Position numbers and translations under genes: made by a program
The notes under the pieces: model-generated
Told to the model about the DNA's origin: nothing
The model's database searches: none
Seen by the model: the letters and a program-made list of their open reading frames with translations, nothing else
Shown here: piece after piece, positions 1 through 13,971 of the stretch
Position numbering within the stretch: position 1 is the first letter of the stretch
Layout of the letters: every line of letters starts with the position of its first letter
Assembly (NCBI GenBank): GCA_041576165.1
Contig: JBFGLM010000084.1
Coordinates: 1-13,971, forward strand
Direction of reading: 5' to 3'
DNA from: Acidimicrobiia bacterium
GTDB lineage: Bacteria > Actinomycetota > Acidimicrobiia > Spongiisociales > Spongiisociaceae
Length of the DNA stretch: 13,971 nt

Positions 1-189
1 ACAGTAGGTGGAGCCGTCTCCGCACCCGACGGTGATACCGGTTCCGGCCATCCATTCAATCCCCGGTGCGTGCACCGATCCGTCCACCACGTCCGTATAG
101 ATGTGGACGGCGAGTGCTGCGCCCGGGATTGTCAGCACCACCACAACGCCGATAATGATCATCGTCCGCTTGGACAGTGTGACCTCCAC
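1..189 (-). CDS. S-layer homology (SLH) domain secreted protein, N-terminal part (runs off window edge)
   Basis: Not in the ORF track. Manual translation from GTG at 189: MEVTLSKRTMIIIGVVVVLTIPGAALAVHIYTDVVDGSVHAPGIEWMAGTGITVGCGDGSTYC. Signal peptide ending ALA, then an SLH-like YTDV...IEWMA..GIT.GC...YC motif; GGAGGTG RBS upstream. Confidence 0.8.
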   Translation of the reverse strand, partial: MEVTLSKRTMIIIGVVVVLTIPGAALAVHIYTDVVDGSVHAPGIEWMAGTGITVGCGDGSTYC

Positions 190-211
190 GCGACACCTCC
201 CCTGCACGCGA

Positions 212-240
212 GTGAGGTCCGCCGCCCTGGCGAACCTCAC
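212..240 (-). terminator. Hairpin between merB-like stop and SLH gene start (possible terminator or 5' UTR stem)
   Basis: GTGAGGT(212-218)/ACCTCAC(234-240) plus CGCC/GGCG. On the minus strand a U-G wobble makes a continuous 12-bp stem. No U-tract. Confidence 0.3.
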
Positions 241-309
241 CTAGCAGGCTATCGAAGCGTGAGCGGACCGGCAGAGTAACCCGGGCGCTGCGGTCCCCCT
301 GCCCGGGCG

Positions 310-981
310 TCAGCTGTCCAGCCCGTCGCCGTAGATAGCCCCGGTGACCTGGCGGCCGACCTCGAAGGCATCGTCGACTGAGAGGGCGAACAATTCGTCA
401 GGACGGCCCGCCATCCACTCCGTGGCGTTGAAACCGTTCTCGAAGAACAGGACCTTGTGGCAGAAGCCGGCCACCACATCTGCGTCGAATGGTCCATCAG
501 GCACCAGGAAAGTGACCACCGTTTCGGGCGGGTGGCAACGGAGGACGCGTTGGGGAGTCACTGTCAGGCTGATCTCTTCACCGGAGAGTCCATCAGTCGC
601 GATGACCCGCACGGTCTCGCCGAGCAGACGGGGCAGGAACAGCGTGTCCCAGGCGCACCATGCGTATGCCACTACCGTTTCAGGGCCGATTTCAAGGCGG
701 TATTGCGGGTGGAGCGGATCACGGGCCAGGCCCCAAAACCCCACGATCGCGTCGTCATCATCCCGGTACACGCCGGGCCACAGCCGGAGTCGCTGAGCGA
801 CCTGGTCGACCGGCGCTCCCACTGCTTCGGCTACTTGCCGGTCGAACACCGATTCACCGCGGGCAAGCAGGCGGTAGGTGGCCAATACGATCCGGCGGTC
901 CAACGCATCGAGGTGGGGGGTGGCCGCCGCCAGTGCAGCGGCGAGATCGGAGATAGTCGGTGGATTCGTGACAACTGTCAT
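310..981 (-). CDS. merB: Organomercurial (alkylmercury) lyase MerB-like protein
   Basis: N-terminal HTH-like segment (YRLLARGESV...VAEAVG), DAIVGFWGL, catalytic YAWCAWDTL (Cys/Asp) and FCHKVLFF (second Cys), final LSVDDAFEVG. AGGAG lies 5 nt before the ATG at 981, so this start is preferred over 987. Confidence 0.88.
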   Translation of the reverse strand: MTVVTNPPTISDLAAALAAATPHLDALDRRIVLATYRLLARGESVFDRQVAEAVGAPVDQVAQRLRLWPGVYRDDDDAIVGFWGLARDPLHPQYRLEIGPETVVAYAWCAWDTLFLPRLLGETVRVIATDGLSGEEISLTVTPQRVLRCHPPETVVTFLVPDGPFDADVVAGFCHKVLFFENGFNATEWMAGRPDELFALSVDDAFEVGRQVTGAIYGDGLDS

Positions 982-1029
982 CGGCACTCCTAGCTCTTGA
1001 ATCGAGGTGACAACCAGAGGTGGCGACGG

Positions 1030-1506
1030 TCAGTCGTTGAGTACGGTGAAGATCCGCCAGCTCACGGCGGCCAGCAACCCCTCTTCTTCCAGCATCTCGG
1101 TCTTGCCCTCAGCCACGTACACGTAGTCGTTGAGCCATTGATATCGCTCATCGCCAGTCTCGAATCGGGGGGTGGACATGAGGTACATCTGACCGAAGTC
1201 CGCGGGCGCGCCCTCAGCGGGAGGTGCGTTTGTCGGATCACTACGCCAGACACCCTGGTTCTGCACGTAGATGATCGCGCCGTCATCGGATTCGAGCGCG
1301 ATGCGGATGTCGAGCCGCATAGTGCCGTTGGGTTCGGCCAGAGGCCAGTCACCCCCGCCCGGGAGCAGGCGGCCCTTCAGTCGAAGTCCTTCGAAGGTGC
1401 CGTCCGCCGCGTTGTAGATGTAGCGAATGCCGTACGGACCGGCGCCGGCATCCAGCCACGGGTCATAGAGCCGTCCGGTCAAGTCCATCAAGTGCTCGAG
1501 CTGCAT
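1030..1506 (-). CDS. DUF3237 family beta-barrel protein
   Basis: Motifs GPYGIR, GTFEGLRLKGRLLPGGGDW, LDIRIALESDDGAIIYV, YLMSTPRFETGDERYQWLN. Strong RBS GAAAGGAG before the ATG at 1506; the ORF-track extension to 1668 overlaps arsR. Confidence 0.88.
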   Translation of the reverse strand: MQLEHLMDLTGRLYDPWLDAGAGPYGIRYIYNAADGTFEGLRLKGRLLPGGGDWPLAEPNGTMRLDIRIALESDDGAIIYVQNQGVWRSDPTNAPPAEGAPADFGQMYLMSTPRFETGDERYQWLNDYVYVAEGKTEMLEEEGLLAAVSWRIFTVLND

Positions 1507-1544
1507 GTGACTCTCCTTTCTCACACCAGAGCACACCTGGATTG

Positions 1545-1586
1545 ATCGAGAAATATCGATGTATTGAACCATCGAGATACGTCGAT
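1545..1586. promoter_or_regulatory. Two tandem ArsR-type operator palindromes ATCGA-N6-TCGAT (1545-1560, 1571-1586)
   Basis: ATCGAgaaataTCGAT and ATCGAgatacgTCGAT in the AT-rich divergent gap between DUF3237 and arsR. Confidence 0.75.
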
Positions 1587-1595
1587 CATTCCCGA

Positions 1596-1601
1596 TAGAC
1601 T
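1596..1601 (+). promoter_or_regulatory. -10 element TAGACT of a probably leaderless arsR transcript
   Basis: TANNNT hexamer ending 6 nt before the ATG at 1608; no clear Shine-Dalgarno sequence. Confidence 0.5.
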
Positions 1602-1607
1602 GAAAAG

Positions 1608-1952
1608 ATGGATCACTGCACGCTGGCCTGCTGCGCCGAAGCCGGCACCTTGAGCACCGACGCCGCAAGTGAGCTGGCGACCGGATTCAAAGCGCTGGGT
1701 GACCCGCATCGGGTGGCGGTGGTCGACTTGTTGTTGCGCGCCGGGGAGCCGGTGTGTGTGGTCGACATCGAACGCCACCTACCGCTGGCGCAATCAACCG
1801 TCAGCTACCACCTGAAAACGTTGATCGGCGCCGGCATCCTCGAGCGAGAGCGGAGGGGCCGCTGGATGTTTTACACCGTTCGGCCCGAAGGCCTCGATCT
1901 TCTGCGCGGAGCGCTCGCCGGATTCCTCAGCGTGACCAGCCTGAATACCTGA
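1608..1952 (+). CDS. ArsR/SmtB family metalloregulatory repressor
   Basis: FKALGDPHRVAVV...VCVVDI...LAQSTVSYHLKTL..AGIL..ERRGRWMFY winged HTH; N-terminal CxxxCC and an alpha3 Cys. Confidence 0.93.
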   Translation: MDHCTLACCAEAGTLSTDAASELATGFKALGDPHRVAVVDLLLRAGEPVCVVDIERHLPLAQSTVSYHLKTLIGAGILERERRGRWMFYTVRPEGLDLLRGALAGFLSVTSLNT

Positions 1953-1974
1953 GACCACCTGGTCCCTCGAAGTC

Positions 1975-2005
1975 TTGACCTTCAAGCAGGTTGAAGCTGT
2001 ATGTT
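1975..2005 (+). promoter_or_regulatory. MerR-family-type promoter/operator
   Basis: TTGACC(1975-1980), 19-bp spacer, TATGTT(2000-2005), with dyad CTTCAA-gcagg-TTGAAG (1980-1996) across the spacer. Confidence 0.75.
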
Positions 2006-2032
2006 GGGATGCCGGCCGAGCAAAGGAACGCC

Positions 2033-2341
2033 ATGGAGCTAACGCTGCAGTATTTCGACGGCTGTCCCAATTGGAAGATCGCTGAGCGCCGGCTCGCCAC
2101 GCTGATTCAGCAGCAGGGACTCGAGGTTGAGATCCGCTACCAGCTCATCGACTCGCCCGAGGCCGCCGCCGAGCATGGGTTTCGGGGTTCACCCACCATT
2201 CTCGTCAACGGGTCGGATCCGTTTGCGGCGCCCGACGCGCCCGTGGGTCTCAGCTGTCGGGTGTACCCCACCGACGACGGACCAGCGGGCTCGCCTACGT
2301 TGCAGCAACTGGCGGAAGCAATGCAAGCGGCAAGCGGGTGA
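2033..2341 (+). CDS. Small thioredoxin-fold protein (YFDGCPNW / GSPT / SCRVY family, commonly linked to mer/MerB loci)
   Basis: MELTLQYFDGCPNW...GFRGSPTILVNGSDPF...GLSCRVY; AAAGGA RBS before the ATG at 2033. Confidence 0.82.
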   Translation: MELTLQYFDGCPNWKIAERRLATLIQQQGLEVEIRYQLIDSPEAAAEHGFRGSPTILVNGSDPFAAPDAPVGLSCRVYPTDDGPAGSPTLQQLAEAMQAASG

Positions 2342-2345
2342 TCAG

Positions 2346-3122
2346 ATGGTGACGCCGATCGAGCGAGACGAGGTGATCCGGCTCATCGACGCCGGGGCAT
2401 ACGTCATCGACGTCCTCCCCGAGCGCGAATACTCCGAGTCTCACCTCCCGGGCGCCATCAACATTCCATTGAAAGAACTCACCGAGTCCGCGGTTGAGGA
2501 GCTGCGGCGGGACAAGCCGGTGGTTGTCTACTGACACGACGGCTTGTGAGACATGTCTCCGCGAGCCGCGTGCCGGCTCGAGCGTCTCGGGTTTGAACAG
2601 GTCTACGACTACGTCTCGGGCATCGCTGACTGGAAGGCAGCCGGGCTGGTGACCGATGGAGAGGCCGCTCCGGTGCAGCGCGTGGCCGATGCGACCCGGC
2701 CCGACATTCCAACATGTCGGTCGGACGAGTCGGTTGGAGAGGCGAAATCGCGCACAATCGGTGCCGGCTGGGACGAATGCGTCGTGGTCGACTGCGATGA
2801 CATCGTGGTCGGGCGGCTGCGCGGCAGTGCGTGGGAAGCGGACCCAGGCGCAAAGGTCGACGTAGTCATGGAGCCCGGTCCGACCACCGTGAGGCCCGAT
2901 GGGTTGCTCCAGCCGCTGGTCGAACGCATGGGAGAACGCGGCACCCGCCTGGTTCTGGTGACGACCGCGCAGGGCGGGCTAGTGGGTGCTCTGCTCAGAG
3001 CTGAAGCCGAACGCTTGCTCACTGGCGAGCCGCCCGAGCAGATCTGGGCGGACTGCGAGGGCTGCCCCGGCGGATGGCGCATCGTGCCCGGTTCACGCGA
3101 GGCGCCGAATGGGGGAGAATGA
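2346..3122 (+). CDS. Rhodanese-like + CBS-pair fusion, predicted selenoprotein with two Sec (U63, U68)
   Basis: One frame from ATG 2346: IDVLPEREYSESHLPGAINIP...KPVVVY-TGA(2532)-HDGL-TGA(2547)-DMSPRAACRLERLGFEQVYDYVSGIADWKAAGL completes a rhodanese domain only if both UGAs are read through. CBS-like repeats and a C-terminal CEGC follow. 258 aa. Confidence 0.85.
2535..2588 (+). promoter_or_regulatory. Candidate bacterial SECIS element(s) inside the coding sequence
   Basis: Hairpin A spans 2535-2572, starting right after UGA1. Hairpin B is CGAGCCG(2562-2568)-CGTGC-CGGCTCG(2574-2580), starting 12 nt after UGA2 with GU in the loop; it can extend via GAGAC(2548-2552)/GTCTC(2584-2588). Confidence 0.6.
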
Positions 3123-3126
3123 GTCG

Positions 3127-3402
3127 ATGGATGATCGCCGCTTCACTCAGGAGGAAACGGCGGATCTCATCCGCCGCGCGACCGAGCTCCGGCATCAGCA
3201 GGACGATGAGCTGACCTACGACCAACTCATCGAGATCGCCGAGGAGGTTGGCATCGACAAGAGGTCGGTGGATGAGGCGTTACGCGCAGCCGAGATCGAG
3301 GAGGCCGAGCGCGCAGACCGGGCAAGCGCGGTGCAGCACACCCACTCTGTGCTGGATCGATGCCTCGAGATCCTCTGCCTCAAGCCACGCTCCGGCACCT
3401 AG
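3127..3402 (+). CDS. Small helical hypothetical protein (F(T/S)QEE..LIRRA...LTYDQL.EIAEEVGI type)
   Basis: GGGGGAG RBS; starts 4 nt after the rhodanese-CBS stop. Resembles the soluble N-terminal domain often found ahead of 2TM-domain proteins, but lacks TM segments. Confidence 0.7.
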   Translation: MDDRRFTQEETADLIRRATELRHQQDDELTYDQLIEIAEEVGIDKRSVDEALRAAEIEEAERADRASAVQHTHSVLDRCLEILCLKPRSGT

Positions 3403-3452
3403 CCAGCTGCAACCTCGACCGCCGGCTCGACTGCGTCGCAAATCCGGGTCTC

Positions 3453-4127
3453 TCAGCCGATGAGGGGCAGACGTGGGTCGGGGTGCTCGAAACTGCGGCC
3501 CGAGGCCGCTCGGATCCAAGTCAGGTTGTCGCTGAGATCCGCCGGCCGTCCTGCAACCGTGCGCCTGGCGAGCAACTGGTCGAGTATGTCGGCCGTGACT
3601 GCAATCCCCTCCGTTGTCGCCACCGGATCCCAGCCGAGGGCGTCGGTCAGGTCGAGCCCATGCACGACCGCCTCGACGATCCGCGTCGGGATGAATTCAC
3701 CCAGCTCCATCAAGGCGTAATAGCCCGAGCCCACAGTCTCGGGCGGGCTGACTCGCGACTCCTCGATGGTCTTGCCGAACGTCTCTTCGAGGACCTTGAC
3801 CATATCCGAGGGTGCTTTCCTCTCGACCATTGTGTACGCATAGTCGTATACGACCGGTGCCACTTCCGATCTCGGGAATATGAAGAAACTCACCCGATCG
3901 CGCCCGGGCTGACCTTCCTGCGGCTCTGCGATCAACATCCGGGTGAGCCCGATCGAGATATCGAAGTGGCCGGCCAGTTCGAAAACCGTCCAATGCGGGA
4001 GCGACGGATCGAGCGGCTCGAGCCGGGTCGGTGTTGACCACTGTTCCCCTTCGACCCGCCGGAAACCGTCCAGGACTTGCCCGAGCTCCCGCTCCAAAAT
4101 GTCCACTGCATCGCTGAACGCCGACAC
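3453..4127 (-). CDS. Maleylpyruvate isomerase N-terminal (MDMPI/DinB-like) metal-binding family protein
   Basis: W.TPTR...WTVFELAGH and RIVEAVVHGLDL motifs (His...Glu-x3-His metal site); GAAAGGAAGG RBS before the GTG at 4127. Confidence 0.85.
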   Translation of the reverse strand: MSAFSDAVDILERELGQVLDGFRRVEGEQWSTPTRLEPLDPSLPHWTVFELAGHFDISIGLTRMLIAEPQEGQPGRDRVSFFIFPRSEVAPVVYDYAYTMVERKAPSDMVKVLEETFGKTIEESRVSPPETVGSGYYALMELGEFIPTRIVEAVVHGLDLTDALGWDPVATTEGIAVTADILDQLLARRTVAGRPADLSDNLTWIRAASGRSFEHPDPRLPLIG

Positions 4128-4279
4128 AATCCTTCCTTTCTCGGCCAGGATTGAAGCTACCCGCACCACTCCGCCCGTGTGCCAGGGCTCCCGGATACGC
4201 CGCCCACGCCCCGCATCTTGCGCCTGGCCATCCGGGAACCTCAAGCCTCTCGGCGTGCCGCCGGACAGCCGGGACTCGG

Positions 4280-4660
4280 CTACGGGAACAACGGGAACAG
4301 GCAGAACGGGTGCCCGGCCGGATCGAGCATCACCCGCACGCCGTCCTGCGGCTGAAACTCGGCGAGGACGGCCCCGACCGACTGGGCCCAAGCCACGCCC
4401 TTTTCCATGTCCTCAACGCCGATGTCGAGGTGCATCATCATCTGCGGATCTCCCGGGCCCGCCGGCCACACCGGCGGAACATGATGTGGCTCGAATTGAA
4501 ACGACAGTCCGGTGCCGCCCTCCGGATGACGAAGCATGACCCAATCGCCCTCGTCGACGGCAATTGGCCACCCAAGCAGCCGGCTATAGAACTGCGCCAG
4601 CTCGCGGGCGTCAGAGGCACCGAGTACAACCGCTGATATCCGCATCGGGGGCCGCGCCAC
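4280..4660 (-). CDS. VOC/glyoxalase-bleomycin resistance family protein
   Basis: LAQFYSRLLGW, LSFQ...PPVWP, QMMMHLDIGV, VMLDPAGHPFCL. Start is either GTG 4660 (TAGTTT 7 nt upstream, leaderless-like) or ATG 4645. Confidence 0.9.
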   Translation of the reverse strand: MARPPMRISAVVLGASDARELAQFYSRLLGWPIAVDEGDWVMLRHPEGGTGLSFQFEPHHVPPVWPAGPGDPQMMMHLDIGVEDMEKGVAWAQSVGAVLAEFQPQDGVRVMLDPAGHPFCLFPLFP

Positions 4661-4807
4661 GGCCAGAAAACTACACGCGTCGAACCGTGCCGCATGCTGC
4701 GCTGGCGTTGTTGCATCCGCAGTCGGAGTCACCCAACGCGGCTTCGTTTCTCGCACGGTACGGGGCTCGTGGACGCGCACCCGCCCGTGTGTCTAGCGTT
4801 GCAGCTC

Positions 4808-5173
4808 ATGGGTCTGGTGTGGCGCCTCGTCATCACCGCCGCGGCTGTGTGGCTGACTGCGACTTTCCTTCCGGGCATTGTCGTCGAGGATGGGGTCTCG
4901 GATCTCGTCCTCGCGGCGTTCGTGTTCGGGGTTGTGAACGCTTTCATCCTGCCGGTCTTGCGGCTCCTGACCAGAGAGATCACTCTGGTCAAACTGGGCG
5001 TTCTCACGCTGGCGGTCAACGCGTTCATGGTGTTGGTGACCGCCGCGTTGGTCGAATCGCCTTCGCTCAGGGGACCGGTGTCCGAACAGGTCCTGACGGG
5101 CATCCTGATCACGGTGATTGTGTCAGCTGTGAGCGTGCTGCTCAGCTGGTATCTGCCGGACCCCATCACCTGA
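4808..5173 (+). CDS. 4-TMS membrane protein, phage holin superfamily IV (DUF360/YvlD-like)
   Basis: Four hydrophobic segments; LVITAAAVWL...PGI, VFGVVNAFILPVLRLL, LGVLTLAVNAFM motifs. Confidence 0.8.
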   Translation: MGLVWRLVITAAAVWLTATFLPGIVVEDGVSDLVLAAFVFGVVNAFILPVLRLLTREITLVKLGVLTLAVNAFMVLVTAALVESPSLRGPVSEQVLTGILITVIVSAVSVLLSWYLPDPIT

Positions 5174-5236
5174 CGGCGTAATCGGCAGCCGGCCACTGTG
5201 CCATCCGCAGAAAGCAGCGGGGCGGCTGGAACCTCT

Positions 5237-6280
5237 TCACTGTGACAGCGCGGTTCGCGCGTCGGCGATATCACCCTGCCACGCGTTGATCGCGAGAATC
5301 GGGCGGAACCCCATTGCGACGTTGATGTTGAGCATGGCTTCGTTGGAGCCGGCGTTGCCGGTGTAGATACGCTCCGCAACAGGGAACTCGGCCACGAAAC
5401 GCTTGATATTGGAGGCCTTTATGAGGCGCCCCAGCCCCCGGTTGCGGTGGGCCGGGTCGACCACCGTGTCACCTTGGTTCGCGATTTCGGGGTCGTGGGT
5501 CTGGGCATGCAGCGTTGTCATCCCTGCGAAATCGCCTGAGTCGCGATGGACCGCAACACAGGCGCGCATCTGATCGCCACGCGTCTCGAGGCTGGCCTCG
5601 ATGCTTCGCCACTTGTCCGGAGTCATGGTCTCGTCCTCGAGATCGAGGTCTTCGAGCGGGGCCGTATTCATCGCCTCGCAGATCCGGCACCACGCAGCGA
5701 CGTGGTCGTCCGGAATGGGAGGCTGAAGGTAGAGCAGGTCGTAATCGGCCGCCCGTTCGCCCGCCCGCTCTATCCATTTGTCCATCAGGTCCCAGTCAAC
5801 ATCCTTGACGAATAGCCGGCTGATCTTCTCACCCAGCACCTTCTTGAGACCCAGCCGTTCGAGTGCGGGCTCCAGCGGCGAGCCGTCGGGTGTGTCGATG
5901 ATCAGTTTCGACCGGCCTTCTCGTTCGAGTCCGTCGAGCCCGGCCGCGAGGAGCCGGCGACCGACCCCGCGGCGGCGGGCGTCCCGGCGCACGGCCAATG
6001 TGAGCAGGCCGCTGTCCTTGTGATCCTGCCACGTGGCCATGTGGCAGACACCCAGCACGTCGTCGCTCTCCGACGCTGCCCACCAGCGGTCCGTGCGGTG
6101 CGTGCCGACCAGCGAACGCCAGTATGCCCGATGCTGCTCGAACGGCGTCCGCGGCTCTTCCGGATAGAAATCAGCCTCGAGGTCGAGATAGGCGAGGTGC
6201 ATACCTCGCAACAGGGTGTCGGAGGCCGACCGCACATTGAACTCGTCCACGTCAACACTCATACGTCGAGATCCGGTCAT
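5237..6280 (-). CDS. Tandem-domain GNAT N-acetyltransferase
   Basis: Two acetyl-CoA motifs (VRRDARRRGVGRRLL; TVVDPAHRNRGLG) and C-terminal TGNAGSNEAMLNINVAMGF. Start may be at 6262. Confidence 0.9.
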   Translation of the reverse strand: MTGSRRMSVDVDEFNVRSASDTLLRGMHLAYLDLEADFYPEEPRTPFEQHRAYWRSLVGTHRTDRWWAASESDDVLGVCHMATWQDHKDSGLLTLAVRRDARRRGVGRRLLAAGLDGLEREGRSKLIIDTPDGSPLEPALERLGLKKVLGEKISRLFVKDVDWDLMDKWIERAGERAADYDLLYLQPPIPDDHVAAWCRICEAMNTAPLEDLDLEDETMTPDKWRSIEASLETRGDQMRACVAVHRDSGDFAGMTTLHAQTHDPEIANQGDTVVDPAHRNRGLGRLIKASNIKRFVAEFPVAERIYTGNAGSNEAMLNINVAMGFRPILAINAWQGDIADARTALSQ

Positions 6281-6373
6281 GAAGTTCCGCGAAGGCTATA
6301 TCGGCACTCCGCCCGAGGCGGGGGAATATCGCCAGCAGTGAAATCGCTCGACTTCGCGAGGTAGCCTCGACCC

Positions 6374-6907
6374 GTGGCAACGGTAGAGCGAACACATCAT
6401 GCTCGTGGTCGGCGGGAGGGACTGACCACGCTCGAGCAGCGCTTCCTGTTCGGTGGCGAGGGCGCCGATGCTCAGACACTTTCGGCAGTGTTGCTGACCG
6501 CGCCCCTTACCGGGGCTGGTTCGATATTTGGTGACCGGCCGGGGGAGACCAATGCCCGCACGGAGCAGTCGTGGACCGTGCAACGCTTCTCCCCTGCTCC
6601 CGGCTTTTCCTTCGATGTAGACCTCACGCAACGCTCCGATGGCGAATTCGTGGTGAGGTTCTCACAGCCCGAACGCCGGGTGCCGTACCTCGAAGGCGAG
6701 TTCCTGTGGACGGTGACGGACGAGCCCGGCGGAGCAGTTCTTGACGAACAGATCAACACAGAGAGCGCCCATGTCGTGGTCAGCGAGCCGTTACATGGGG
6801 CGCGGCCTTCGATCCGGCGCTGGTTGTTCTTTCGTGCCGGTCACCAACAGGTGATGAGTCGCATGACGAACAATGTTGCGGCGCTTCTGAGCCCCGGGAT
6901 CCCCTAG
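6374..6907 (+). CDS. Hypothetical protein
   Basis: 177-aa ORF filling the gap between GNAT and the next gene; TAGCCT 6 nt before the GTG (leaderless-like). No family recognised. Confidence 0.65.
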   Translation: MATVERTHHARGRREGLTTLEQRFLFGGEGADAQTLSAVLLTAPLTGAGSIFGDRPGETNARTEQSWTVQRFSPAPGFSFDVDLTQRSDGEFVVRFSQPERRVPYLEGEFLWTVTDEPGGAVLDEQINTESAHVVVSEPLHGARPSIRRWLFFRAGHQQVMSRMTNNVAALLSPGIP

Positions 6908-6936
6908 CGCTGCTCCCGACCTGCCACGATCGGCGA

Positions 6937-7665
6937 TCACCGCCGATGCCGCGTCAGGGCGAGGGTAACCCCGACTGCCAGCCCTCCCACGGCGACCGAG
7001 AGCGCAGAAATCCGGCGCTGGAGACGTTCCAGGAGGGCGTCACGTTCAGGGTCGCTACCAGCAAGGAGATGGCCTGGGAGGGCTCGCCTGACCGTGTTGT
7101 CGATGCGGTCGGAGGTGATCGGACCCCGAGCGGGCCGTGCCACAGCCGCCAGCAGCACTCTGGCATCGTCGCAATCGGAGCACGCCACGACCCCGTCGAG
7201 CTGTTCTCCGGGTCCTGAGATGACGCTCTGTGGGCGGGTCCGGGCCACCCGCGCTCGGGGCTCTTCTCGGATCCGTCCGGCCGGGGAGCTCGTGTCGTCA
7301 CCGTTGCTGGGTACGGGGGTGGGATCAACCGGGTCCTCGCCGTATTCCAGGGTGACATAAACAGACTCATCACCAGCCACCTCGGTCACGTGCACCACAA
7401 TCGCGGCACATACCACCAACTCCCGCCCGCAGCAGTCGACCGCAACCCCCGGCTGAACGATGACTGCATCCGAGGGCGGATCGGTGGATGCCACCCCCAG
7501 TCCGCACACCGTGCCGTAGCCATGAAGTCGGTTGTGGGCGTGATTCTTGTCGAGGAGATAGCCCTGTTCGGCTTCGAGGTCCTCCGCGGTCAAGAGTTTG
7601 CCGTCAAAGAACCGGTTACGTTCGACCCGTCGATCTCGGGGGCAAGGTGACTCGTGCTGGTTCAT
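6937..7665 (-). CDS. Hypothetical protein with eCIS/phage-tail-associated N-terminal domain and C-terminal TM anchor
   Basis: RNRFFDGKLLTAEDLEAEQGY...HNRLHGYGTVCGLGV...VQPGVAVDCCGRELVV pattern; ends LSVAVGGLAVGVTLALTRHRR; GGAG upstream of ATG 7665. Confidence 0.65.
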   Translation of the reverse strand: MNQHESPCPRDRRVERNRFFDGKLLTAEDLEAEQGYLLDKNHAHNRLHGYGTVCGLGVASTDPPSDAVIVQPGVAVDCCGRELVVCAAIVVHVTEVAGDESVYVTLEYGEDPVDPTPVPSNGDDTSSPAGRIREEPRARVARTRPQSVISGPGEQLDGVVACSDCDDARVLLAAVARPARGPITSDRIDNTVRRALPGHLLAGSDPERDALLERLQRRISALSVAVGGLAVGVTLALTRHRR

Positions 7666-7925
7666 ACCTCTCCATCCATCGCGCTGGGAGAAGCCTCGCA
7701 TGCACAGACATTCCGAGGTGGCGTATCTGATACGCACAGTCGGCTCGGCACGTTGGGCTGGACGCGGGGCGTTTGCCCCCAGAGACGGGCCGCTCGAGAC
7801 CTGGAACAGCCGGACGATCCCAGCGTGCGGGCTGCAGCCGGCCGCCGCAGACGAGTCTGCCAGGCTGACTCGGTGATGAACCTACGAGCTGGAAAACCGG
7901 CATTCGCGTTGAATGGACACCCACT

Positions 7926-8480
7926 ATGAGCGATCATCTCGACCGGCTCAGGTCGCGACTGCGAGCACTACAGGTGACATCGCCACCCTCGCCCTGGCGG
8001 CACGTCGGTGCGTTCGCCGTTGGCGGTCTGCTCTGCGCCGGGACCGCCTCTCTGGCGCTGGATCGGGAGTTCGTGATGGTGGTCTCGTCGAGTGGCCGGG
8101 GAGTATTCGACGCGGCTACCGGGGAAAAAGTCGCGCGGGATCGCGCGGGCCCCGAGGACAGCGAGCTAGATGAGCTCGGTCTTACCGTGGCCGGGATAGG
8201 GCCGCTGGCCGGGCGTCGAATCCGGGTCGCCGGGATCTGGGGAGGGGGACTGCCTTCAACGACGTCGGATGGGTGGAGCGTCACGGTGGTGGCACCTGAT
8301 TGGCCGCTTGAGATGGTGGTTTTGGAGCGGCCCGGGGCTTGGGTGATGTCTGAGCGGCTGGCGACGGGCTGCGTACTCATCGACCGACCCGTGAGCGAGA
8401 TCAGAGCCGTCGGATTCTCAGAATCGGGCCGCGTTCTGGTCGAAGCCACCGCGTCCGACCTGGCGCTGTTTGTGCGGTGA
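7926..8480 (+). CDS. Hypothetical beta-rich protein
   Basis: 184-aa ORF with protein-like composition (VVSSSGRGVFDAATGEKVARD, GIWGGGLP..TSDGW, RAVGFSESGRVL). No function recognised. Confidence 0.7.
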   Translation: MSDHLDRLRSRLRALQVTSPPSPWRHVGAFAVGGLLCAGTASLALDREFVMVVSSSGRGVFDAATGEKVARDRAGPEDSELDELGLTVAGIGPLAGRRIRVAGIWGGGLPSTTSDGWSVTVVAPDWPLEMVVLERPGAWVMSERLATGCVLIDRPVSEIRAVGFSESGRVLVEATASDLALFVR

Positions 8481-8785
8481 GTCGCCGATCCCGTCGTCTC
8501 GCCGGACATGTGATCCGCACCCATGCCCGCCCCAACGGATTGCCCTTCCTTCCCGGTCGGGCATAAGAACTGGCGAAGTGCTCCGGTCGGGCGGCGGGCT
8601 GCCCGAACGGGCCGCCCGCCGCCCCGCCTGCCAACCGCCGGCTGGAGACGCCGGGGCCGATGTGCCGGGACGGTATTCCTCTCGCAGGGACTAGCCACAT
8701 CTCGCGGCGGAGGAATGATGATCGAGCATGCGCACGCTACAGCCGATGACCACTCTCAGTGACGACCGTTCAGGGGGAAGCCATC

Positions 8786-8824
8786 ATGAGAACACACCGC
8801 TCCGGCCTGAGCTGGCACCAATGA
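8786..8824 (+). CDS. 12-aa upstream ORF MRTHRSGLSWHQ, translationally coupled to the protease
   Basis: AGGGGGAAG RBS at 8772-8780, ATG at 8786; its TGA (8822-8824) overlaps the protease ATG (8821-8823) as ATGA. Confidence 0.5.
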   Translation: MRTHRSGLSWHQ

Positions 8825-10545
8825 AACCGGTCGTTGCGCTCGCAGTCGTCATCACCCTGCTTGCACCGGTGGACGCGTCGCGCCCCGCCTCAGCGGACAC
8901 AGAGGACGCCGCAGTCGCGGTGATCGTGCGCGAGGCGAACCCAGGGTCCGATGCGGCAGAAGCTCTCGTCGAACAGGTAGGCGGCACCGTCGGCGACCAG
9001 ATCTCGATCATCGGCGGTTTCACCGCTACCGTGCCGGCTGCCGCACTCTCGGTGGTGGCTGCCAGCCCAGCAGTCATTTCCGCCACGGTTGACCACCAGG
9101 CCGCCGACCTCACTGCCGGATGGCAGGACGCCACCAACCTGGGCGACTTCGTCCCGAACGAATGGGACGGCTCGATGCTGCACGTCGGGTATCAACTCGG
9201 CGTCAACGAGTACTGGCGGGCCGGCTACACCGGCACGGGCGTCGGCGTCGCCCTCATCGATACGGGCGTGGCGCCGGTTGAGGGGCTTGCCGGCAACGGA
9301 AAACTGATCAACGGCCCGGATCTCTCGTTTGAGTCCCAGTCAGATGAGTTCCGTTACCTCGACACGCACGGCCACGGCACGCATCTGGCGGGGATCATCG
9401 CCGGACGCGACCCTGCTGCCCCCGCCGAACTCACGATCGACAACGCCGAGTCGTATTTCATCGGTGTCGCGCCGGACGCCCACCTGGTGAACGTGAAGGT
9501 GGCGGGTCATGATGGGGCCGTGGACGTTTCGCAGGTCATCGCCGCCATCGACTGGGTTGTCCAGCACAAGAACGACCACAACATCCGCATCGTCAATCTG
9601 GCGTTCGGCACCGACTCGAGCCAGGATCCGCGGGTCGACCCGCTGTCGTATGCGGTTGAGCAGGCCTGGAAGCAGGGCCTCGTGGTGATCGTTGCGTCCG
9701 GCAACGACGGTAACGCTGCCCCCGTCCGCAACCCGGCGACGAACCCCTACGTGATAGCGGTCGGCGCCATGGACGGCTACCGGCTGAGGGGCAAGGACAC
9801 TCAGCCCATTCCCGACTGGTCGAGCTGCGGAACGGACCGCACCGTAGACATCGTCGCCCCCGGCGCCTCGATCGTCAGCCTCCGCAGCCCCGGGTCACTC
9901 GCGGATGTCGATCACCCGGAAGCCCGGGTGGCCGATCGTTTCTTCCTCGGTTCCGGCACCAGCCAGGCTGCAGCTGCGGCGTCTGGCGCCGCTGCCTTGG
10001 TCTTGGAGCGGAACCCCGAATACTCGCCGGACGATGTCAAAGACGTGCTGATGGACAGCGCCGACACGTTCCGCAAGGTGTCAGCGGTCTGCCAGGGGTC
10101 AGGGAAGATCCGGCTCCACAGCGCATGGTGGGAGAACCCGGACGGCTCGAACCAACTTCATCTGGCTGCCACCGGTCTCGGTTCACTGGAGGCCTCGCGG
10201 GGATCGGATCACCTCGAGATGGATGGCGTGCTCCTGGAGGGCGAACAGGACATCTTCGGCAACACCTGGGACGCCGCCACCTGGACACTGGCGGCGGCTC
10301 AGGGTGGCAGCTGGTCGGGTGGCGATTGGAACGGAGCGACGTGGACGGGTGGATCTTGGTCCGGCGGTTCCTGGTCCGGCGCCAGCTGGTCGGGCGGCTC
10401 GTGGTCCGGCGGGTCCTGGTCGGGAATGACCTGGAGCAGCAATACGTGGTCCGGCGGATCCTGGTCCGGCGGATCGTGGTCGGGCACTAGCTGGTCGGGC
10501 GGCTCGTGGTCCGGCGGCTCCTGGTCGGGACTGAGCTGGGACTGA
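8821..10545 (+). CDS. Secreted S8 (subtilisin-family) serine peptidase with C-terminal Trp pentapeptide repeats
   Basis: Signal peptide MKPVVALAVVITLLAP...ASA, propeptide, catalytic motifs VALIDTG (Asp), HGHGTHLAG (His), ASGNDG (oxyanion Asn), GSGTSQA (Ser). Start uncertain (track gives 8728). Confidence 0.93.
   Translation: MKPVVALAVVITLLAPVDASRPASADTEDAAVAVIVREANPGSDAAEALVEQVGGTVGDQISIIGGFTATVPAAALSVVAASPAVISATVDHQAADLTAGWQDATNLGDFVPNEWDGSMLHVGYQLGVNEYWRAGYTGTGVGVALIDTGVAPVEGLAGNGKLINGPDLSFESQSDEFRYLDTHGHGTHLAGIIAGRDPAAPAELTIDNAESYFIGVAPDAHLVNVKVAGHDGAVDVSQVIAAIDWVVQHKNDHNIRIVNLAFGTDSSQDPRVDPLSYAVEQAWKQGLVVIVASGNDGNAAPVRNPATNPYVIAVGAMDGYRLRGKDTQPIPDWSSCGTDRTVDIVAPGASIVSLRSPGSLADVDHPEARVADRFFLGSGTSQAAAAASGAAALVLERNPEYSPDDVKDVLMDSADTFRKVSAVCQGSGKIRLHSAWWENPDGSNQLHLAATGLGSLEASRGSDHLEMDGVLLEGEQDIFGNTWDAATWTLAAAQGGSWSGGDWNGATWTGGSWSGGSWSGASWSGGSWSGGSWSGMTWSSNTWSGGSWSGGSWSGTSWSGGSWSGGSWSGLSWD
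10303..10542 (+). repeat. 16 x 15-bp coding tandem repeat (GGSWS pentapeptide)
   Basis: GGSWS GGDWN GATWT GGSWS GGSWS GASWS GGSWS GGSWS GMTWS SNTWS GGSWS GGSWS GTSWS GGSWS GGSWS GLSWD, ending at the stop codon. Confidence 0.95.
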
Positions 10546-10735
10546 GCTCCTCCTCGAGTCGTCGGGGCCGGAGGCTGCCAGCGCTCCGCCACACACGAGC
10601 CACGGCCAACCTGACTTTGTCTGTTGGTACGGAGCCAAACCCAGCCGGATTGTTGGCATGTCTCGAGCGCGTTCACGCAGGTTTCGCTTCGAGCCTCTCG
10701 ACTGAGACACACGAAATCCTCGGACTGGGAGCCCA

Positions 10736-10780
10736 CCATTTGTGATGGGCGGGGCCCCGGCGCCCGCCCATCACAAATGG
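10736..10780. terminator. Perfect 18-bp inverted repeat, probable bidirectional terminator
   Basis: CCATTTGTGATGGGCGGG-9 nt-CCCGCCCATCACAAATGG between the convergent S8 and SRPBCC genes. Confidence 0.7.
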
Positions 10781-10811
10781 CCCTGAGAATCGATGATGAC
10801 GTGATCCTGCG

Positions 10812-11309
10812 TCAACCCTCCACGTAGCGCTCGAGCAGCCGGCCACCGAATCGCCCAACAAGCTTTTCTCCGATGTCAACTAGCGCGTCGGCGAAGATCC
10901 CTTTGTTCAGATCGAGGTCTTCTGCCTGGAAATACTCGTCCCATGTGAGGGTCGTTCCTCCCGATGAAGGCTCAAGAGTCACCAGAGTCAGGCAGCTCGA
11001 CAGCCCAAAGGCATTGGGCTCCTCTGACATCGACGCCCACCCGCGAGGCGGCTCGTACCAGGAGAGGATCTCGCGGTGGAGCAAGGGCGCGCCCCCCTCC
11101 GTCACGGGCTTGAAGTGGCACACATACTCGGCGGCCGAACCGTCCGGCCCGTCGATCACTTCGACCTCTTCGAGCCCATAGCTGTACTCGGGGAACCGGC
11201 CGAGGTCGCCAACGAGGGCCCAAACGTCGGATACCGCAGCATCGAGTTCGACAGCAAGCCGATTGCGCAACGGGCTGCTGGTGTATGCGTCGCCTATAGC
11301 AGTGGTCAT
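10812..11309 (-). CDS. SRPBCC (polyketide cyclase/START-like) family protein
   Basis: VELDAAVSDVWALVGDLGRFPEY, REILSWYEPPR, VTLEPSSGGTTLTW and a C-terminal helix; GAGGA RBS. Confidence 0.85.
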   Translation of the reverse strand: MTTAIGDAYTSSPLRNRLAVELDAAVSDVWALVGDLGRFPEYSYGLEEVEVIDGPDGSAAEYVCHFKPVTEGGAPLLHREILSWYEPPRGWASMSEEPNAFGLSSCLTLVTLEPSSGGTTLTWDEYFQAEDLDLNKGIFADALVDIGEKLVGRFGGRLLERYVEG

Positions 11310-11476
11310 ATGTTCTCGTTCCTCTCTGAGCGCCGCGGTTGTCCCAACCCGGCGACTCTGTTTTCAACGGTTCACACCATCGCTGGTCTCAGCGGGGCCG
11401 CATGGCCTCCTGCCCCCGGTCGCGCGGCGGTTGCACCCGGTCGATCGCCCAGTGTCCTTGCTATCGTTGCTCACAC

Positions 11477-11494
11477 AAACCGGTTGACCGACCT
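11477..11494. promoter_or_regulatory. Putative TetR operator upstream of the SRPBCC gene
   Basis: AAACCGGTTGACCGACCT, 17/18 identical to 12173-12190. Lies downstream of a minus-strand TTGAAA-16-TAGCCT promoter candidate (11536-11509). Confidence 0.65.
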
Positions 11495-11532
11495 CTTTTT
11501 TGGCCGGAAGGCTACATGGCTGTTCCCACCTT

Positions 11533-12159
11533 TCAAGCCGAGTCAACCGGACTCGAAGTCCAGAGACCACCGTTGAGTAACTGACGGGCAGTGCCAACCA
11601 ACCGCTCGACGCTGACTCGGCCTGGCTCCCATGCCTCGAGCACCGTCGCCCCCAGCGAGAGTGCCGCGAGAAGTGCAGCCAGCGCTTCGGAGTCGACGTG
11701 GGGATCTAAAGCGCCCTCGTCGACTGCTCGGCGTACCAGTTCATCCACGGTCCTCCACCACGGATCCATCAGCCGCAGTTGGGTGTCCAACGCCCGGTCG
11801 TTTGTCAGTGCCTCTGCCCACAGGATGGCCGCCAGCCGCGCGTCACGGTTGCTTGGCGAATCGTGATTGAGCGCCAGCCCTGCCTCGACCAATCCGGCCA
11901 ATGCCTGGCTCGCCGAATCTCCCGCGAGGGCCGCACCATAGGTCTCCTCGTCGAGCGCCATCGAGCGTTCCCGAATACCGGCAACGATGTCGTTCTTCGA
12001 TTTGAAGTAGTGATACAGGGCGCCACTCGAGACACGCGCTTCCCGCCGGATGGTGGACAATGTTGCGCGCTGCATTCCAACGCGAGCAATCACCGACTCG
12101 GCGGCGTCGAGAATGGCATCCCGCCGGCTCTCGAGGTATTCAGGGCTCACCTTTGGCAT
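11533..12159 (-). CDS. TetR/AcrR family transcriptional regulator
   Basis: MPKVSPEYLESRRDAILDAA...ATLSTIRREARVSSGALYHYFKSKNDI HTH; GAGGA RBS before ATG 12159. Confidence 0.93.
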   Translation of the reverse strand: MPKVSPEYLESRRDAILDAAESVIARVGMQRATLSTIRREARVSSGALYHYFKSKNDIVAGIRERSMALDEETYGAALAGDSASQALAGLVEAGLALNHDSPSNRDARLAAILWAEALTNDRALDTQLRLMDPWWRTVDELVRRAVDEGALDPHVDSEALAALLAALSLGATVLEAWEPGRVSVERLVGTARQLLNGGLWTSSPVDSA

Positions 12160-12172
12160 GTCGTCCTCATAA

Positions 12173-12221
12173 AAACCGGTTAACCGACCTTTATATTGGC
12201 TGATCCGCAGGAGGGTGTCAA
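12173..12221 (-). promoter_or_regulatory. tetR promoter with overlapping autoregulatory operator
   Basis: Minus-strand TTGACA(12221-12216)-17 bp-CAATAT(12198-12193); operator AAACCGGTTAACCGACCT at 12173-12190 with palindromic core CGGTTAACCG. Confidence 0.7.
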
Positions 12222-12350
12222 TCCCCATTTCGCTCAGGCCCGATGTGTGGTTGCGCGGCTGTCCGCAAGTTCCGGGGCCCGGCCGGCCGATTGCGACCAG
12301 CGACCGGCGGGTCACCTTTCCGGCGTAGAGTTGGCGGACGGGAGGAATAT

Positions 12351-13286
12351 GTGAAGCGACACGTCACGTTCATTCACGGCATCGCCAACCAACCGAAACC
12401 GGAGCGCATGATCACCAGCTGGACGCGAGCATTGGCCGACGGCGGCGATGGCGTCGACCTCGACCTGTACGGCGTGACCACTTCAATGGTCTACTGGGCT
12501 GACATCATGTACGCCGATCCGAGCGACGCGACCCCCGAGCAGGAGTCCGTCGTGTTCGAAGGCGTAACAGCAGGTGAGATCGCCGACATCGACGAGGACT
12601 ACATCGCTCGGGCGCAAGGTGGCGAGCGGACATTCATCGATTCCATGGTCGGCACCTTCCACCTCGATGCCGACGAAAGCATCCCTCCGCCGTCGATCGA
12701 CGAGGTGGACGAGGCGATCGCCCATCTGCTCGAAGCCGTACCGCTCCCCTGGTTCGTCAAGAAGCCGTTGATGAAGATCTTTCTGCGCGACGTCCACCAC
12801 TATCTGTTCAACACCCCTCATTCGCCGCGCCCCGGTTCCGACTACATGGTGCAGGACGAAATCCGAAGCCGCTTCCTCGCAAACCTCGCGTCGGTCGATG
12901 CCGATCGGCATCTTGTGATCGCACACAGCATGGGCACGGTCATCTCGTACGACGTGCTCAAACGGGTGCCGGACAGCACCTCAGTCGACACGATCATCAC
13001 GCTGGGGAGCCCGCTCGGTCTGAGCGAGATCCAGGACCAGTTGAGCCCTGAGTGGTCGGCCGCCGATGGCTTTCCGGCCAAGGTCGTCGACTGGGTCAAC
13101 GTCGCCGATCGCCTCGATCCCGTCTGCGGCGCGGATCCCGACATCGCCAACGATTACCGGCGGGCCGATGAGCTCGCCGTGGAGGACGTGAAGGTGCGGA
13201 ACAGCGGCGCCTTCCGCCATCCGGTCAACAAATACCTGCGCCAGCCTCGAGTCCAGCAAGCCGTTCGAACTGCACTGCAACTGTGA
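12351..13286 (+). CDS. Alpha/beta-hydrolase fold protein (serine hydrolase)
   Basis: VTFIHGI oxyanion strand, nucleophile AHSMG, TLGSPLG, WVNVADRLDPV (Asp), late His in FRHP..KYL; GGAGG RBS before GTG 12351. Confidence 0.82.
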   Translation: MKRHVTFIHGIANQPKPERMITSWTRALADGGDGVDLDLYGVTTSMVYWADIMYADPSDATPEQESVVFEGVTAGEIADIDEDYIARAQGGERTFIDSMVGTFHLDADESIPPPSIDEVDEAIAHLLEAVPLPWFVKKPLMKIFLRDVHHYLFNTPHSPRPGSDYMVQDEIRSRFLANLASVDADRHLVIAHSMGTVISYDVLKRVPDSTSVDTIITLGSPLGLSEIQDQLSPEWSAADGFPAKVVDWVNVADRLDPVCGADPDIANDYRRADELAVEDVKVRNSGAFRHPVNKYLRQPRVQQAVRTALQL

Positions 13287-13295
13287 GGAGCGGGC

Positions 13296-13971
13296 GTGAG
13301 CTTTTTCGAAACACCGTTGGGCGAGGCACTCGAGACCGCGCTCGACTCGGGCAAGGACGAGGAGATCGCCGCCCGGGTCAACGACGTCCTCTCCGCCGTC
13401 TGGCCGAAACAGCTCGACGCCGACCAGATCCAGGATGTCGTCGTCAAACTGCAGCGCCGCGCCCAGTTCGGTCACGTCATCGCGATCGCCGACGCCGCGC
13501 TTGCGACGGACATGGCGACGATCGAAACGCGGCGACGCTACAGCCAGGCGCTGATCGAGCTCGGTGCGCTCCATGCCGCCGAGCTAGAGCTGAACCGCAT
13601 CCTGCTAGACGCCGAAGCGAGCCCGGACGAGCAGGGCGAGGCCCGCGGCCTTTTAGGCCGGCTGCGCAAGCAGCGGTACATCTTCGGCAACAGGGGTTCG
13701 GATCTACGGGATGCGATCCAGGTGTACAACGAGGCCTACGCAGGCTTTACCGATCCGATGTGGCATGGGGTGAATCTGCTCGCCCTGATGAAACGGGCCC
13801 AGCGTTACAACCAGCCGGTTCCGCCCGGCCTGCCGAACCTGGAAGAGCTGGCCGGGACGGTTCTGGCCTTCGTGCACCAAGTTCCGGATCTGCAGCGGGA
13901 CATCTGGACCCGGGCCACCGAAGTGGAAGCCCTCGTGGCGCAGGGCGATCTCGCCGCCGCCCAACAGGTAG
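13296..13971 (+). CDS. TPR-like helical protein (TPR-S / DUF4071-like), N-terminal part, runs off window
   Basis: Not in the ORF track. Open frame from GTG 13296 (GAGGAG RBS): MSFFETPLGEAL...RRRYSQALIELG...EARGLLGRLRKQRY...AIQVYNEAY...WHGVNLLAL...DIWTRATEVEALVAQGD. Confidence 0.75.
   Translation, partial: MSFFETPLGEALETALDSGKDEEIAARVNDVLSAVWPKQLDADQIQDVVVKLQRRAQFGHVIAIADAALATDMATIETRRRYSQALIELGALHAAELELNRILLDAEASPDEQGEARGLLGRLRKQRYIFGNRGSDLRDAIQVYNEAYAGFTDPMWHGVNLLALMKRAQRYNQPVPPGLPNLEELAGTVLAFVHQVPDLQRDIWTRATEVEALVAQGDLAAAQQV

Follow-up and report, generated by a model that had tools for sequence, protein, structure and literature searches.

A single SECIS hairpin as the probable signal for two neighbouring UGA codons in a rhodanese-CBS gene of Acidimicrobiia

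Introduction

Bacterial selenoprotein genes are usually described as containing one UGA codon and, directly behind it at a fixed distance, one hairpin, the selenocysteine insertion sequence (SECIS). A predicted rhodanese-CBS selenoprotein gene of an Acidimicrobiia bacterium contains two in-frame UGA codons (UGA1 and UGA2) for selenocysteine (Sec, U), and the question it raises is which structure serves which codon. The gene is located on contig JBFGLM010000084.1 of assembly GCA_041576165.1, positions 1 to 13,971, and this whole stretch of 13,971 nucleotides (nt) is here called the window. A sequence-only reading of the window had described two overlapping hairpins behind UGA1, here called A and B, and had proposed either that B serves both codons or that the ribosome melts A after UGA1 and lets B fold for UGA2.

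The comparison with homologous sequences presented here suggests that one SECIS, hairpin B, is probably used for both UGAs of a two-Sec rhodanese-CBS protein with the site U63-x4-U68. Two UGAs 15 nt apart precede a single conserved SECIS in 81 distinct sequences, which come from genomes and metagenomes of Acidimicrobiia. These genes provide a concrete system for asking how far SelB can reach, through which intervening structure, and whether a SECIS can be loaded a second time after only five codons. They also add a rhodanese-CBS subfamily with a U-x4-U motif that is above no NCBIfam cut-off.

Results and Discussion

A rhodanese-CBS protein with two predicted selenocysteines

If TGA is read as U, the gene product has 258 residues, with U63 and U68 five residues apart (table 1). 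Residues 8-99 match the Pfam domain Rhodanese (PF00581) with an E-value of 9.9e-19 and 68.1 bits against a cut-off of 22.2, and Pfam also gives a weak CBS match (E 2.9e-05). UGA1 is aligned with a codon that encodes Cys in 108 of 189 homologues, and U63 is placed opposite a Cys of the PDB chains 1yt8 (domain 4) and 3nhv. At codon 68, 134 of the 189 homologues have TGA and 55 have Cys. The rhodanese BH2092 of Bacillus halodurans (PDB 3nhv, 3o3w) contains Cys at both positions, in the sequence Y-C-W-G-P-A-C of 3nhv, but is a Cys form with a single domain. The domain match above the cut-off, together with Cys or Sec at the catalytic position, classifies the protein as a rhodanese, and the in-frame UGAs opposite Cys of the homologues, followed by conserved coding sequence, classify it as a predicted selenoprotein.

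Table 1. Positions of genes, codons and RNA structures in the window.
Feature	Positions	Strand	Remarks
MerB-like organomercurial lyase gene, divergent	310-987	-	PF03243, 1.5e-24; 131 bits, under the curated cut-off of 193
ArsR/SmtB-type metalloregulator gene, cluster head	1608-1952	+	NF033788, 80.2 bits vs cut-off 55
DF-family (seleno)protein gene, Cys form	1991-2341	+	NF049942, 67.9 bits vs cut-off 70; ends 4 nt before the rhodanese start codon
Rhodanese-CBS selenoprotein gene (predicted)	2346-3122	+	Start ATG 2346; 258 codons and stop TGA 3120-3122
UGA1, codon 63 (U63)	2532-2534	+	Rhodanese catalytic-Cys position; in frame of the open reading frame from ATG 2346
UGA2, codon 68 (U68)	2547-2549	+	Second position of the C/U-x4-C/U motif; same open reading frame
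Hairpin A	2535-2572	+	RNAfold; minimum free energy fold of the free mRNA, 16 pairs, UGA2 within the stem; competes with B
Upper A, apical part of A	2546-2562	+	6 pairs, 17 nt, 11 nt after UGA1; two-UGA-specific synonymous constraint
Hairpin B, bacterial SECIS candidate	2562-2580	+	7-bp stem 2562-2568/2574-2580, loop CGUGC 2569-2573
Third hairpin (hairpin C)	2575-2593	+	GGCUCGAG with CUCGGGUU, 2575-2582/2586-2593; in the minimum free energy fold, overlaps the 3' arm of B

The protein scores above no model cut-off in NCBIfam, where the nearest selenoprotein models are TsoB (NF045694; 31.1 bits vs a cut-off of 805) and rhodanese_LYCAU (31 vs 115). According to excerpts of a 2026 catalogue of prokaryotic selenoproteins (PMC13188914), there are five rhodanese forms, and TsoB is form 5, which contains two Sec residues in the motif UxxxxU. 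Like our protein, it carries Sec at the catalytic site of its rhodanese domain, and it has the same U-x4-U motif. However, TsoB is a fusion of rhodanese and DsbD, whereas the rhodanese domain is here combined with CBS and a C-terminal CxxC tail and there is no DsbD part; membership in TsoB was rejected on this ground, on the score and on the length of 258 residues. Another rhodanese form, with the motif UxU, comes from Olavius symbionts (excerpts of PMC1976440). Nothing on how two close UGAs share a SECIS was found in the excerpts of PMC13188914 and PMC1976440, and a literature search, with the primary TsoB paper and supplements outside its range, found nothing on one bacterial SECIS for two UGAs or on a rhodanese-CBS selenoprotein.

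The homologues were collected from 61 related genomes and from a 401-genome sample of the same order, of which 56 genomes had a match at E <=1e-40, with identities of 50-70% in these two sources, and from one metagenome scan with the degenerate pattern H-D-G-L-U-D-M, in which TGA or TGY was allowed at codon 63. A species-representative genome collection was also used, for which the patterns contained Cys, so that two-UGA forms were undetectable by design. We left out four loci of unpublished genomes, rows identical over 102 nt, four loci in which the motif was not found (L066, L073, L127, L180), one at a contig edge (L202) and one unrelated pattern match (L256). The unpublished genomes entered only the initial match tallies and are the basis of no claim. 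The final set contained 189 distinct public sequences, of which 81 have both TGAs (UU), 53 have Cys63 and TGA68 (CU), and 55 have two Cys (CC); the UU and CU forms make up the 134 UGA2-bearing sequences. Some codon counts and energies were taken from an earlier set of 124 sequences, as indicated.

The combination of TGA63 with Cys68 occurs in none of the 189 sequences. In the species-representative collection, the CU forms come from metagenome-assembled genomes of Acidimicrobiia, Thermoleophilia and Chloroflexota, and the CC forms from Streptomyces, Micromonospora and Nonomuraea. Most UU genes belong to one clade of 44 rows (support 96) with 40 UU and 4 CU members. Some homologues were listed with three TGAs, and a third Sec was considered and rejected: the third TGA is the stop codon, which was matched because the query ended with its stop read as U. 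An in-frame TAG was listed beside the two TGAs for some homologues (G201:C3, G254:C47, G351:C180, G399:C23, G010:C276); in locus L031 it closes the frame about 20 residues early, and in the others it may be a true stop within an alignment that runs too far.

Hairpin B is conserved by compensatory changes in UGA2-bearing genes

There are 12 nt between UGA2 and the stem of hairpin B and 27 nt between UGA1 and this stem, and the loop is located 19 and 34 nt after these codons, with G as the second base. The 12 nt to the stem and the two distances to the loop had been given correctly by the sequence-only reading, as had the position of the loop inside the range of 16-37 nt reported for bacterial SECIS elements (excerpts of PMC13188914 and PMC10778597), although 34 nt is near the upper limit. 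The loop of 5 nt and the stem of 7 bp are also within the ranges of the bSECISearch model, which, as excerpted from PMC13188914, has a loop of 3-9 nt, an upper stem of 4-16 bp and a G as the first or second base of the loop, or as both. Hairpin B thus resembles a bacterial SECIS of the E. coli fdhF type in its placement in the coding region, its 7-bp stem, its 5-nt loop with G at the second position followed by U, and the distance from UGA2 to the loop.

All seven pairs of B are present in 79 of 81 UU and 48 of 53 CU sequences, that is, in 127 of the 134 UGA2 sequences, as compared to only 13 of the 55 CC sequences. In the ungapped alignment of the 134 sequences, 99.1% of the cells are paired, as against 17-44% if the partner is slid. 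Nine cells are changed on both sides, at pair 36-44 (C-G 116, U-A 8, A-U 1), and none of 500 shuffles reached the covariation score or the number of doubly changed cells. The compensating changes on the 3' side replace Arg77 with Gln or Leu; they are therefore not synonymous, and the pairing is retained at a cost to the amino acid sequence. At least 90% of the 134 sequences have G as the second loop base (alignment column 39), with exceptions that include the loci L199 and L206 (loop CUUGG). Codon usage in the set of 124 follows the same division: Ala75 is encoded by GCG in all 69 UGA2 genes but in 26 of 55 CC genes, and Arg73 is CGC or CGT in no UGA2 gene but in 26 of 55 CC genes. RNAalifold predicted B and nothing else from the 134 UGA2 sequences, and B plus a 4-bp helix other than A from the 81 UU sequences. 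The comparison of TGA-bearing with Cys-containing homologues thus speaks for B, which is conserved with compensatory changes in the UGA2 forms and mostly lost in the CC forms. Judging from these sequence comparisons, B is almost certainly the SECIS of UGA2. A lower extension of its stem, in which UCC at 2558-2560 would pair with the GGR codon of Gly82, was rejected: rows with TCC retain GGA, which gives a C-A mismatch, and there is no covariation. The window gave no match in Rfam at the gathering scores, and the segment 2500-2640 none at E <=10.

To place B among the SECIS elements of its own assembly, we used a local scan for TGA codons with open frames on both sides that are rich in G+C at third codon positions. 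It gave 217 candidates, 57 of them with a hairpin 8-15 nt downstream. Ten comparison genes were picked by recognisable motifs, and Pfam identified them as FdhA, CMD/AhpD, a redoxin, three DUF3179 proteins, three GrdB-like proteins and a UbiE-type methyltransferase. In seven of the ten genes the TGA lies inside the domain, and in the three GrdB-like genes the domain stops three residues short of it. The hairpins of the ten genes start 9-13 nt after the UGA, a range conditioned by the 8-15 nt filter and drawn from a bin that may hold two organisms, and have stems of 6-9 bp and the loops GUC, GUU, GGUCG, AGUUG and CGUGCU. With its spacer of 12 nt, 7 bp and the loop CGUGC, hairpin B fits these local elements.

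The scan also brought out two groups of genes with SECIS-like hairpins 9-13 nt after the TGA in each member. The DUF3179 paralogues (C1, C49, C110) share the motif W-U-P-L-C, and the GrdB-like genes (C78, C15, C7) the motif U-P-[ML]-C.

Hairpin A is the stable fold of the free mRNA but shows no covariation

The two hairpins exist where the sequence-only reading had placed them, with UGA2 in the stem of A. Hairpin A consists of the pairs CACG 2535-2538/CGTG 2569-2572, CGGCTTGTG 2540-2548/CGCGAGCCG 2560-2568 and AGA 2549-2551/TCT 2556-2558, with A2539 and C2559 bulged and the loop CATG at 2552-2555. Positions 2562-2572 are common to A and B, and the two hairpins are therefore mutually exclusive, as had been claimed. 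The minimum free energy (MFE) fold of 2532-2595 by RNAfold, at -31.0 kcal/mol, holds A and the third hairpin, without B. Shuffled sequence does not fold as well, an outcome that the reading had named as a possible refutation: none of 200 dinucleotide shuffles had an MFE as low (mean -22.9, standard deviation 2.9, z -2.82). The third hairpin is a feature of this window only and does not recur when relatives are folded. As it competes with the 3' arm of B, the window has the pairing alternatives 1:2, 2:3 and 3:4.

The conservation of A is of another kind than that of B. In the 134 sequences, 85.2% of the cells of A are paired as compared to 85.1% in shuffled alignments (74 of 500 as high), and the covariation score was reached by 39 of 500 shuffles, that is, there is no covariation. 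All 16 pairs are present in only 25 of the 81 UU sequences. In the UU genes, the last base of the Gly66 codon, the partner of G2565, is random (A11 C21 G25 T18), with 27 changes on the tree. The lower ten pairs are equally well kept in UU genes and in CU genes of the same subfamily (9.2 vs 9.1 of 10). The loop CAUG is 17 nt from UGA1 and hence inside the 16-37 nt range, but it has no G in its first two positions, as the bSECISearch model requires. Nor is the loop sequence retained, since L054 has UCUU instead. In the two-UGA lineage of L199 and L206, another hairpin occupies the place where A would stand. Finally, the 5' arm of A starts at the first base after UGA1, so that A is not intact with UGA1 in the A site. 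The idea that A is the SECIS of UGA1 is not supported by these comparisons. As part of what we consider the best explanation, A is probably not a second SECIS but the resting fold of the untranslated mRNA.

A switch from A to B in the thermodynamic model

In the free RNA of the window, the pair probability is approximately 1.0 for A and 0 for B. If at least 8 nt after UGA1 are kept single-stranded, the probability of B rises to 0.5-0.69 and that of A falls to at most 0.03, whereas A stays above 0.77 with 7 nt or less. Over 41 UU sequences, B has a mean probability of 0.20 in the free RNA and of 0.80 once 11 nt are covered. In the set of 124, the mean energy of A is -16.9 kcal/mol for UU genes, -11.7 for the CU genes that belong to their subfamily and -2.8 for the remaining CU genes, and that of B is about -11.8 kcal/mol in all three groups alike. 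The probability of B in the free mRNA is 0.20, 0.62 and 0.86 in these groups, respectively; its low value in UU genes thus follows from the stronger fold of A, with B being equal across the groups.

The lower helix of a bacterial SECIS is unwound as the UGA reaches the A site (excerpts of PMC13188914). Because A adjoins UGA1, this means that A would be open when UGA1 is decoded, and that B would then be able to fold. The ribosome-driven switch from A to B that had been proposed from the sequence is thus real in the thermodynamic model, as is the mutual exclusion, with A opening before UGA1 is decoded.

Hairpin B as the probable SECIS of UGA1

The suggestion of the sequence-only reading that B serves both codons is favoured by the observation that B is the sole element conserved with compensatory changes in all UGA-bearing homologues. 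A tree of 131 rows requires 8 switches between U and C at codon 63, and B is in place every time, a pattern not readily explained if UGA1 required a SECIS of its own that had to evolve anew. We consider it most likely, at somewhat better than even chances, that B also serves UGA1. UGA1 would then have taken the place of the catalytic Cys at a later stage, in genes already equipped with UGA2 and B, and B would direct Sec insertion also at this codon, 27 nt upstream of it. Such an element would differ from known bacterial SECIS elements in serving a second UGA 15 nt further upstream and in being sequestered in the free mRNA by a more stable hairpin that contains the second UGA. In eukaryotes, a local stem-loop beside the UGA of SEPN1, the selenocysteine redefinition element, aids a distant SECIS in the 3' untranslated region. 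The likeness is one of idea only, since that SECIS and its SBP2 system are unlike the system considered here.

A precedent for the long distance is found in selD of the same order. We examined 28 of 30 selD loci, the other two being from unpublished genomes, and these have TGA (23) or Cys (5) at the active site. All 23 TGA forms share one layout: the UGA is followed by 7 nt, a 19-nt hairpin, 1 nt and a second hairpin with a G-U-N loop, which starts at column 31, 27 nt after the UGA. In these, 94.6% of the cells are paired and 14 cells are changed on both sides, which none of 500 shuffles matched. The second hairpin is absent from all five Cys-type genes. Hairpin B also starts at column 31 if counted from UGA1, and it lies behind upper A as the GU-loop hairpin of selD lies behind its spacer hairpin. 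The selD layout indicates that this SelB can work with a SECIS at a distance of 27 nt and a folded spacer in between. There are also differences: selD contains a single UGA and a strong, covarying spacer hairpin from 7 nt after it, whereas upper A is weak, starts 11-12 nt after UGA1 and contains the second UGA. The selD SECIS may be described as bipartite (C1:171385-172317, L019; L310-L338), and its GU-loop hairpin is often enclosed by an outer helix.

Synonymous constraint between UGA1 and hairpin B

The excess stability of A in the UU genes comes solely from its six apical pairs, 2546-2562 (upper A), which are complete in 53 of 81 UU but in only 1 of 53 CU sequences. Of the UU genes, 35 of 41 use TCT for Ser71, as compared to 3 of 14 CU genes from their own subfamily, and the Leu67 codon ends in G in 40 of 41 as compared to 7 of 14. 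If codons 63-81 are left out of the tree, the last base of the Ser71 codon is seen to have changed 4 times in 76 UU rows, and only between T and C, while other fourfold sites changed 15-32 times; in 27 CU rows it changed 9 times, to all four bases. The 14 UU sequences with TCC at Ser71, which disrupts an A-U pair of A, all have GGG at Gly66, as against 12 of 64 rows with TCT, and this association suggests an alternative pairing of the two positions. L054, which is outside the main two-UGA clade on the tree, contains all six pairs of upper A. The separate UU lineage of L199 (4329-4394) and L206 (2648-2713) has AGT at Ser71, three of the six pairs and the B loop CUUGG, and it forms a 6-bp hairpin, GGACUC/GAGUCC, of -10.5 kcal/mol between UGA1 and B, with UGA2 in the loop. 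The synonymous constraint in the two-UGA clade is thus real; it may be tied to UGA1 and may reflect a structure.

A mechanism that would accommodate these observations is as follows. The ribosome would unwind the 5' arm of A before UGA1 is at the A site, which would free the 3' arm and let B fold. Less certainly, the 15-17 nt between UGA1 and B, including UGA2, may form a small hairpin that shortens the path to B, similar to the first hairpin of selD. Five codons on, the ribosome would melt this spacer hairpin and B would be at the canonical distance of 12 nt from UGA2. The complete model, in which SelB of this actinobacterial order acts over 27 nt when a hairpin of 15-20 nt fills the spacer, a single B decodes both UGAs, and A hides B off the ribosome, is offered tentatively, as less likely than not.

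Several results weigh against this mechanism. The geometries are alike but not identical, with about 8 nt unpaired in selD as against 11-12 nt with upper A. UGA1 is separated by 27 nt from the stem of B and by 34 nt from its loop; the former is over twice the distance seen in the ten ordinary genes, and the SelB-binding hairpin of E. coli is located 11 nt from the UGA (excerpts of PMC8659212). Upper A is weak, with a mean of -2.1 kcal/mol, and the probability of a spacer hairpin with 11 nt covered is 0.27 in the UU genes and only 0.01-0.02 in the window. The link between upper A and UGA1 was not significant in independent pairs on the 131-row tree (5 usable, 2.2 in the same direction, 0 opposite and 2.8 unchanged; p >=0.25). 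Lastly, the MFE of the spacer (positions 6-29 alone) is -3.66 kcal/mol in both the UU and the CU genes of TCN type and therefore does not discriminate between them.

Alternative explanations

The last two results also speak for the alternative that B serves both UGAs unaided, with A and its apical part as by-products of the coding of H-D-G-L-U-D-M-S-P-R-A-A and of the constraints on B. Most columns of A are indeed fixed by conserved residues or by B, and the equal conservation of the lower ten pairs in UU and same-subfamily CU genes fits a by-product as well. What such a by-product does not account for is the behaviour of the synonymous sites, that is, the Ser71 codon, which ends in U or C in every one of 76 UU rows, with only 4 changes, while its last base is free in CU genes and neighbouring fourfold sites are saturated, the invariable company of TCC at Ser71 with GGG at Gly66, and the preference for G in Leu67. 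The strong spacer hairpin of L199 and L206 is not accounted for either, and we judge this explanation to be rather improbable, at about one chance in five.

The sequential relay of the sequence-only reading assigns a SelB-binding role to A itself: its apical 17 nt would be the SECIS of UGA1, after which A would be melted and B would fold for UGA2. The outline of A is that of E. coli fdhF as excerpted from PMC8659212, being 38 nt long, adjoining the UGA and having one bulged base in an apical stem-loop of 17 nt that lies 11 nt from UGA1, and the distance to its loop is acceptable. The contrast between UU and CU sequences in upper A, the slow change of Ser71 and the six pairs in L054 would also be explained. 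Against the relay stand the lack of covariation and of the loop G (L054, with UCUU, does not have it either), the random base at Gly66 in the stem of A, the A-U pair that is lost in the 14 sequences with TCC, and the reduction to three of six pairs, with a different hairpin, in L199 and L206. By itself, upper A is of marginal stability, it was not predicted by RNAalifold even from the UU sequences alone, and none of the ten other SECIS candidates of the assembly resembles it. The relay is therefore unlikely, and hairpin B as the one SECIS of both codons is preferred.

Two SelB proteins for two types of SECIS were also considered, but this was ruled out by the four genomes with two-UGA genes (G219, G250, G030, G049) that each contain a single SelB above the cut-off, so that a second factor is not needed. 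That one or both TGAs are not Sec codons at all, because of a pseudogene, a sequencing error, a true stop or a reassigned codon, is highly improbable, since, even if the source is a contaminated metagenome bin, the two TGAs recur in 81 distinct sequences of genomic and metagenomic origin, in a reading frame that is conserved before and after them, both positions are opposite Cys in relatives, covariation of B is confined to the forms with TGA2, the assembly encodes the Sec machinery, and TGA also terminates the rhodanese-CBS gene and its neighbours.

The assembly and its selenocysteine machinery

The assembly is a metagenome bin of 161 contigs, estimated to be 96.5% complete with 7.5% contamination. 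It contains two tRNA-Sec genes (anticodon tca), two selA-selB pairs and one selD, which is itself of the Sec type, with an in-frame TGA. The selA-selB operons and tRNA-Sec genes are located at C24:55512-58621, C100:605-3619, C1:33376-33466 and C145:1292-1382. A further distal SECIS in the assembly (spacer of at least 20 nt and stem of at least 7 bp) was looked for, and none of the candidates listed was credible; they look like open reading frames in the wrong frame or terminators. The bin size is 5.1 Mb, compared to 2-4 Mb in relatives, and the assembly has a second rhodanese-CBS copy (C86:10219-10953), which does not differ from the copy in G139:C146 over 102 nt. The bin may contain contigs of two related organisms.

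Gene neighbourhood and the C-terminal tail

The rhodanese-CBS gene is preceded by the genes for an ArsR/SmtB-type regulator and a DF-family protein, and a MerB-like gene is located further upstream on the opposite strand (table 1). This neighbourhood suggests a function of the rhodanese-CBS subfamily in metal or metalloid chemistry.

The C-terminal tail contains the motif W-x-D-C-x-G-C-P-G-x-W (residues 237-247, window 3054-3086). Of the 134 UGA2-bearing homologues, 47 gave no match to this motif, many of them on short contigs, and both Cys residues are present in all of the 87 that could be matched. The CxxC of the tail could be the resolving pair for the U-x4-U site.

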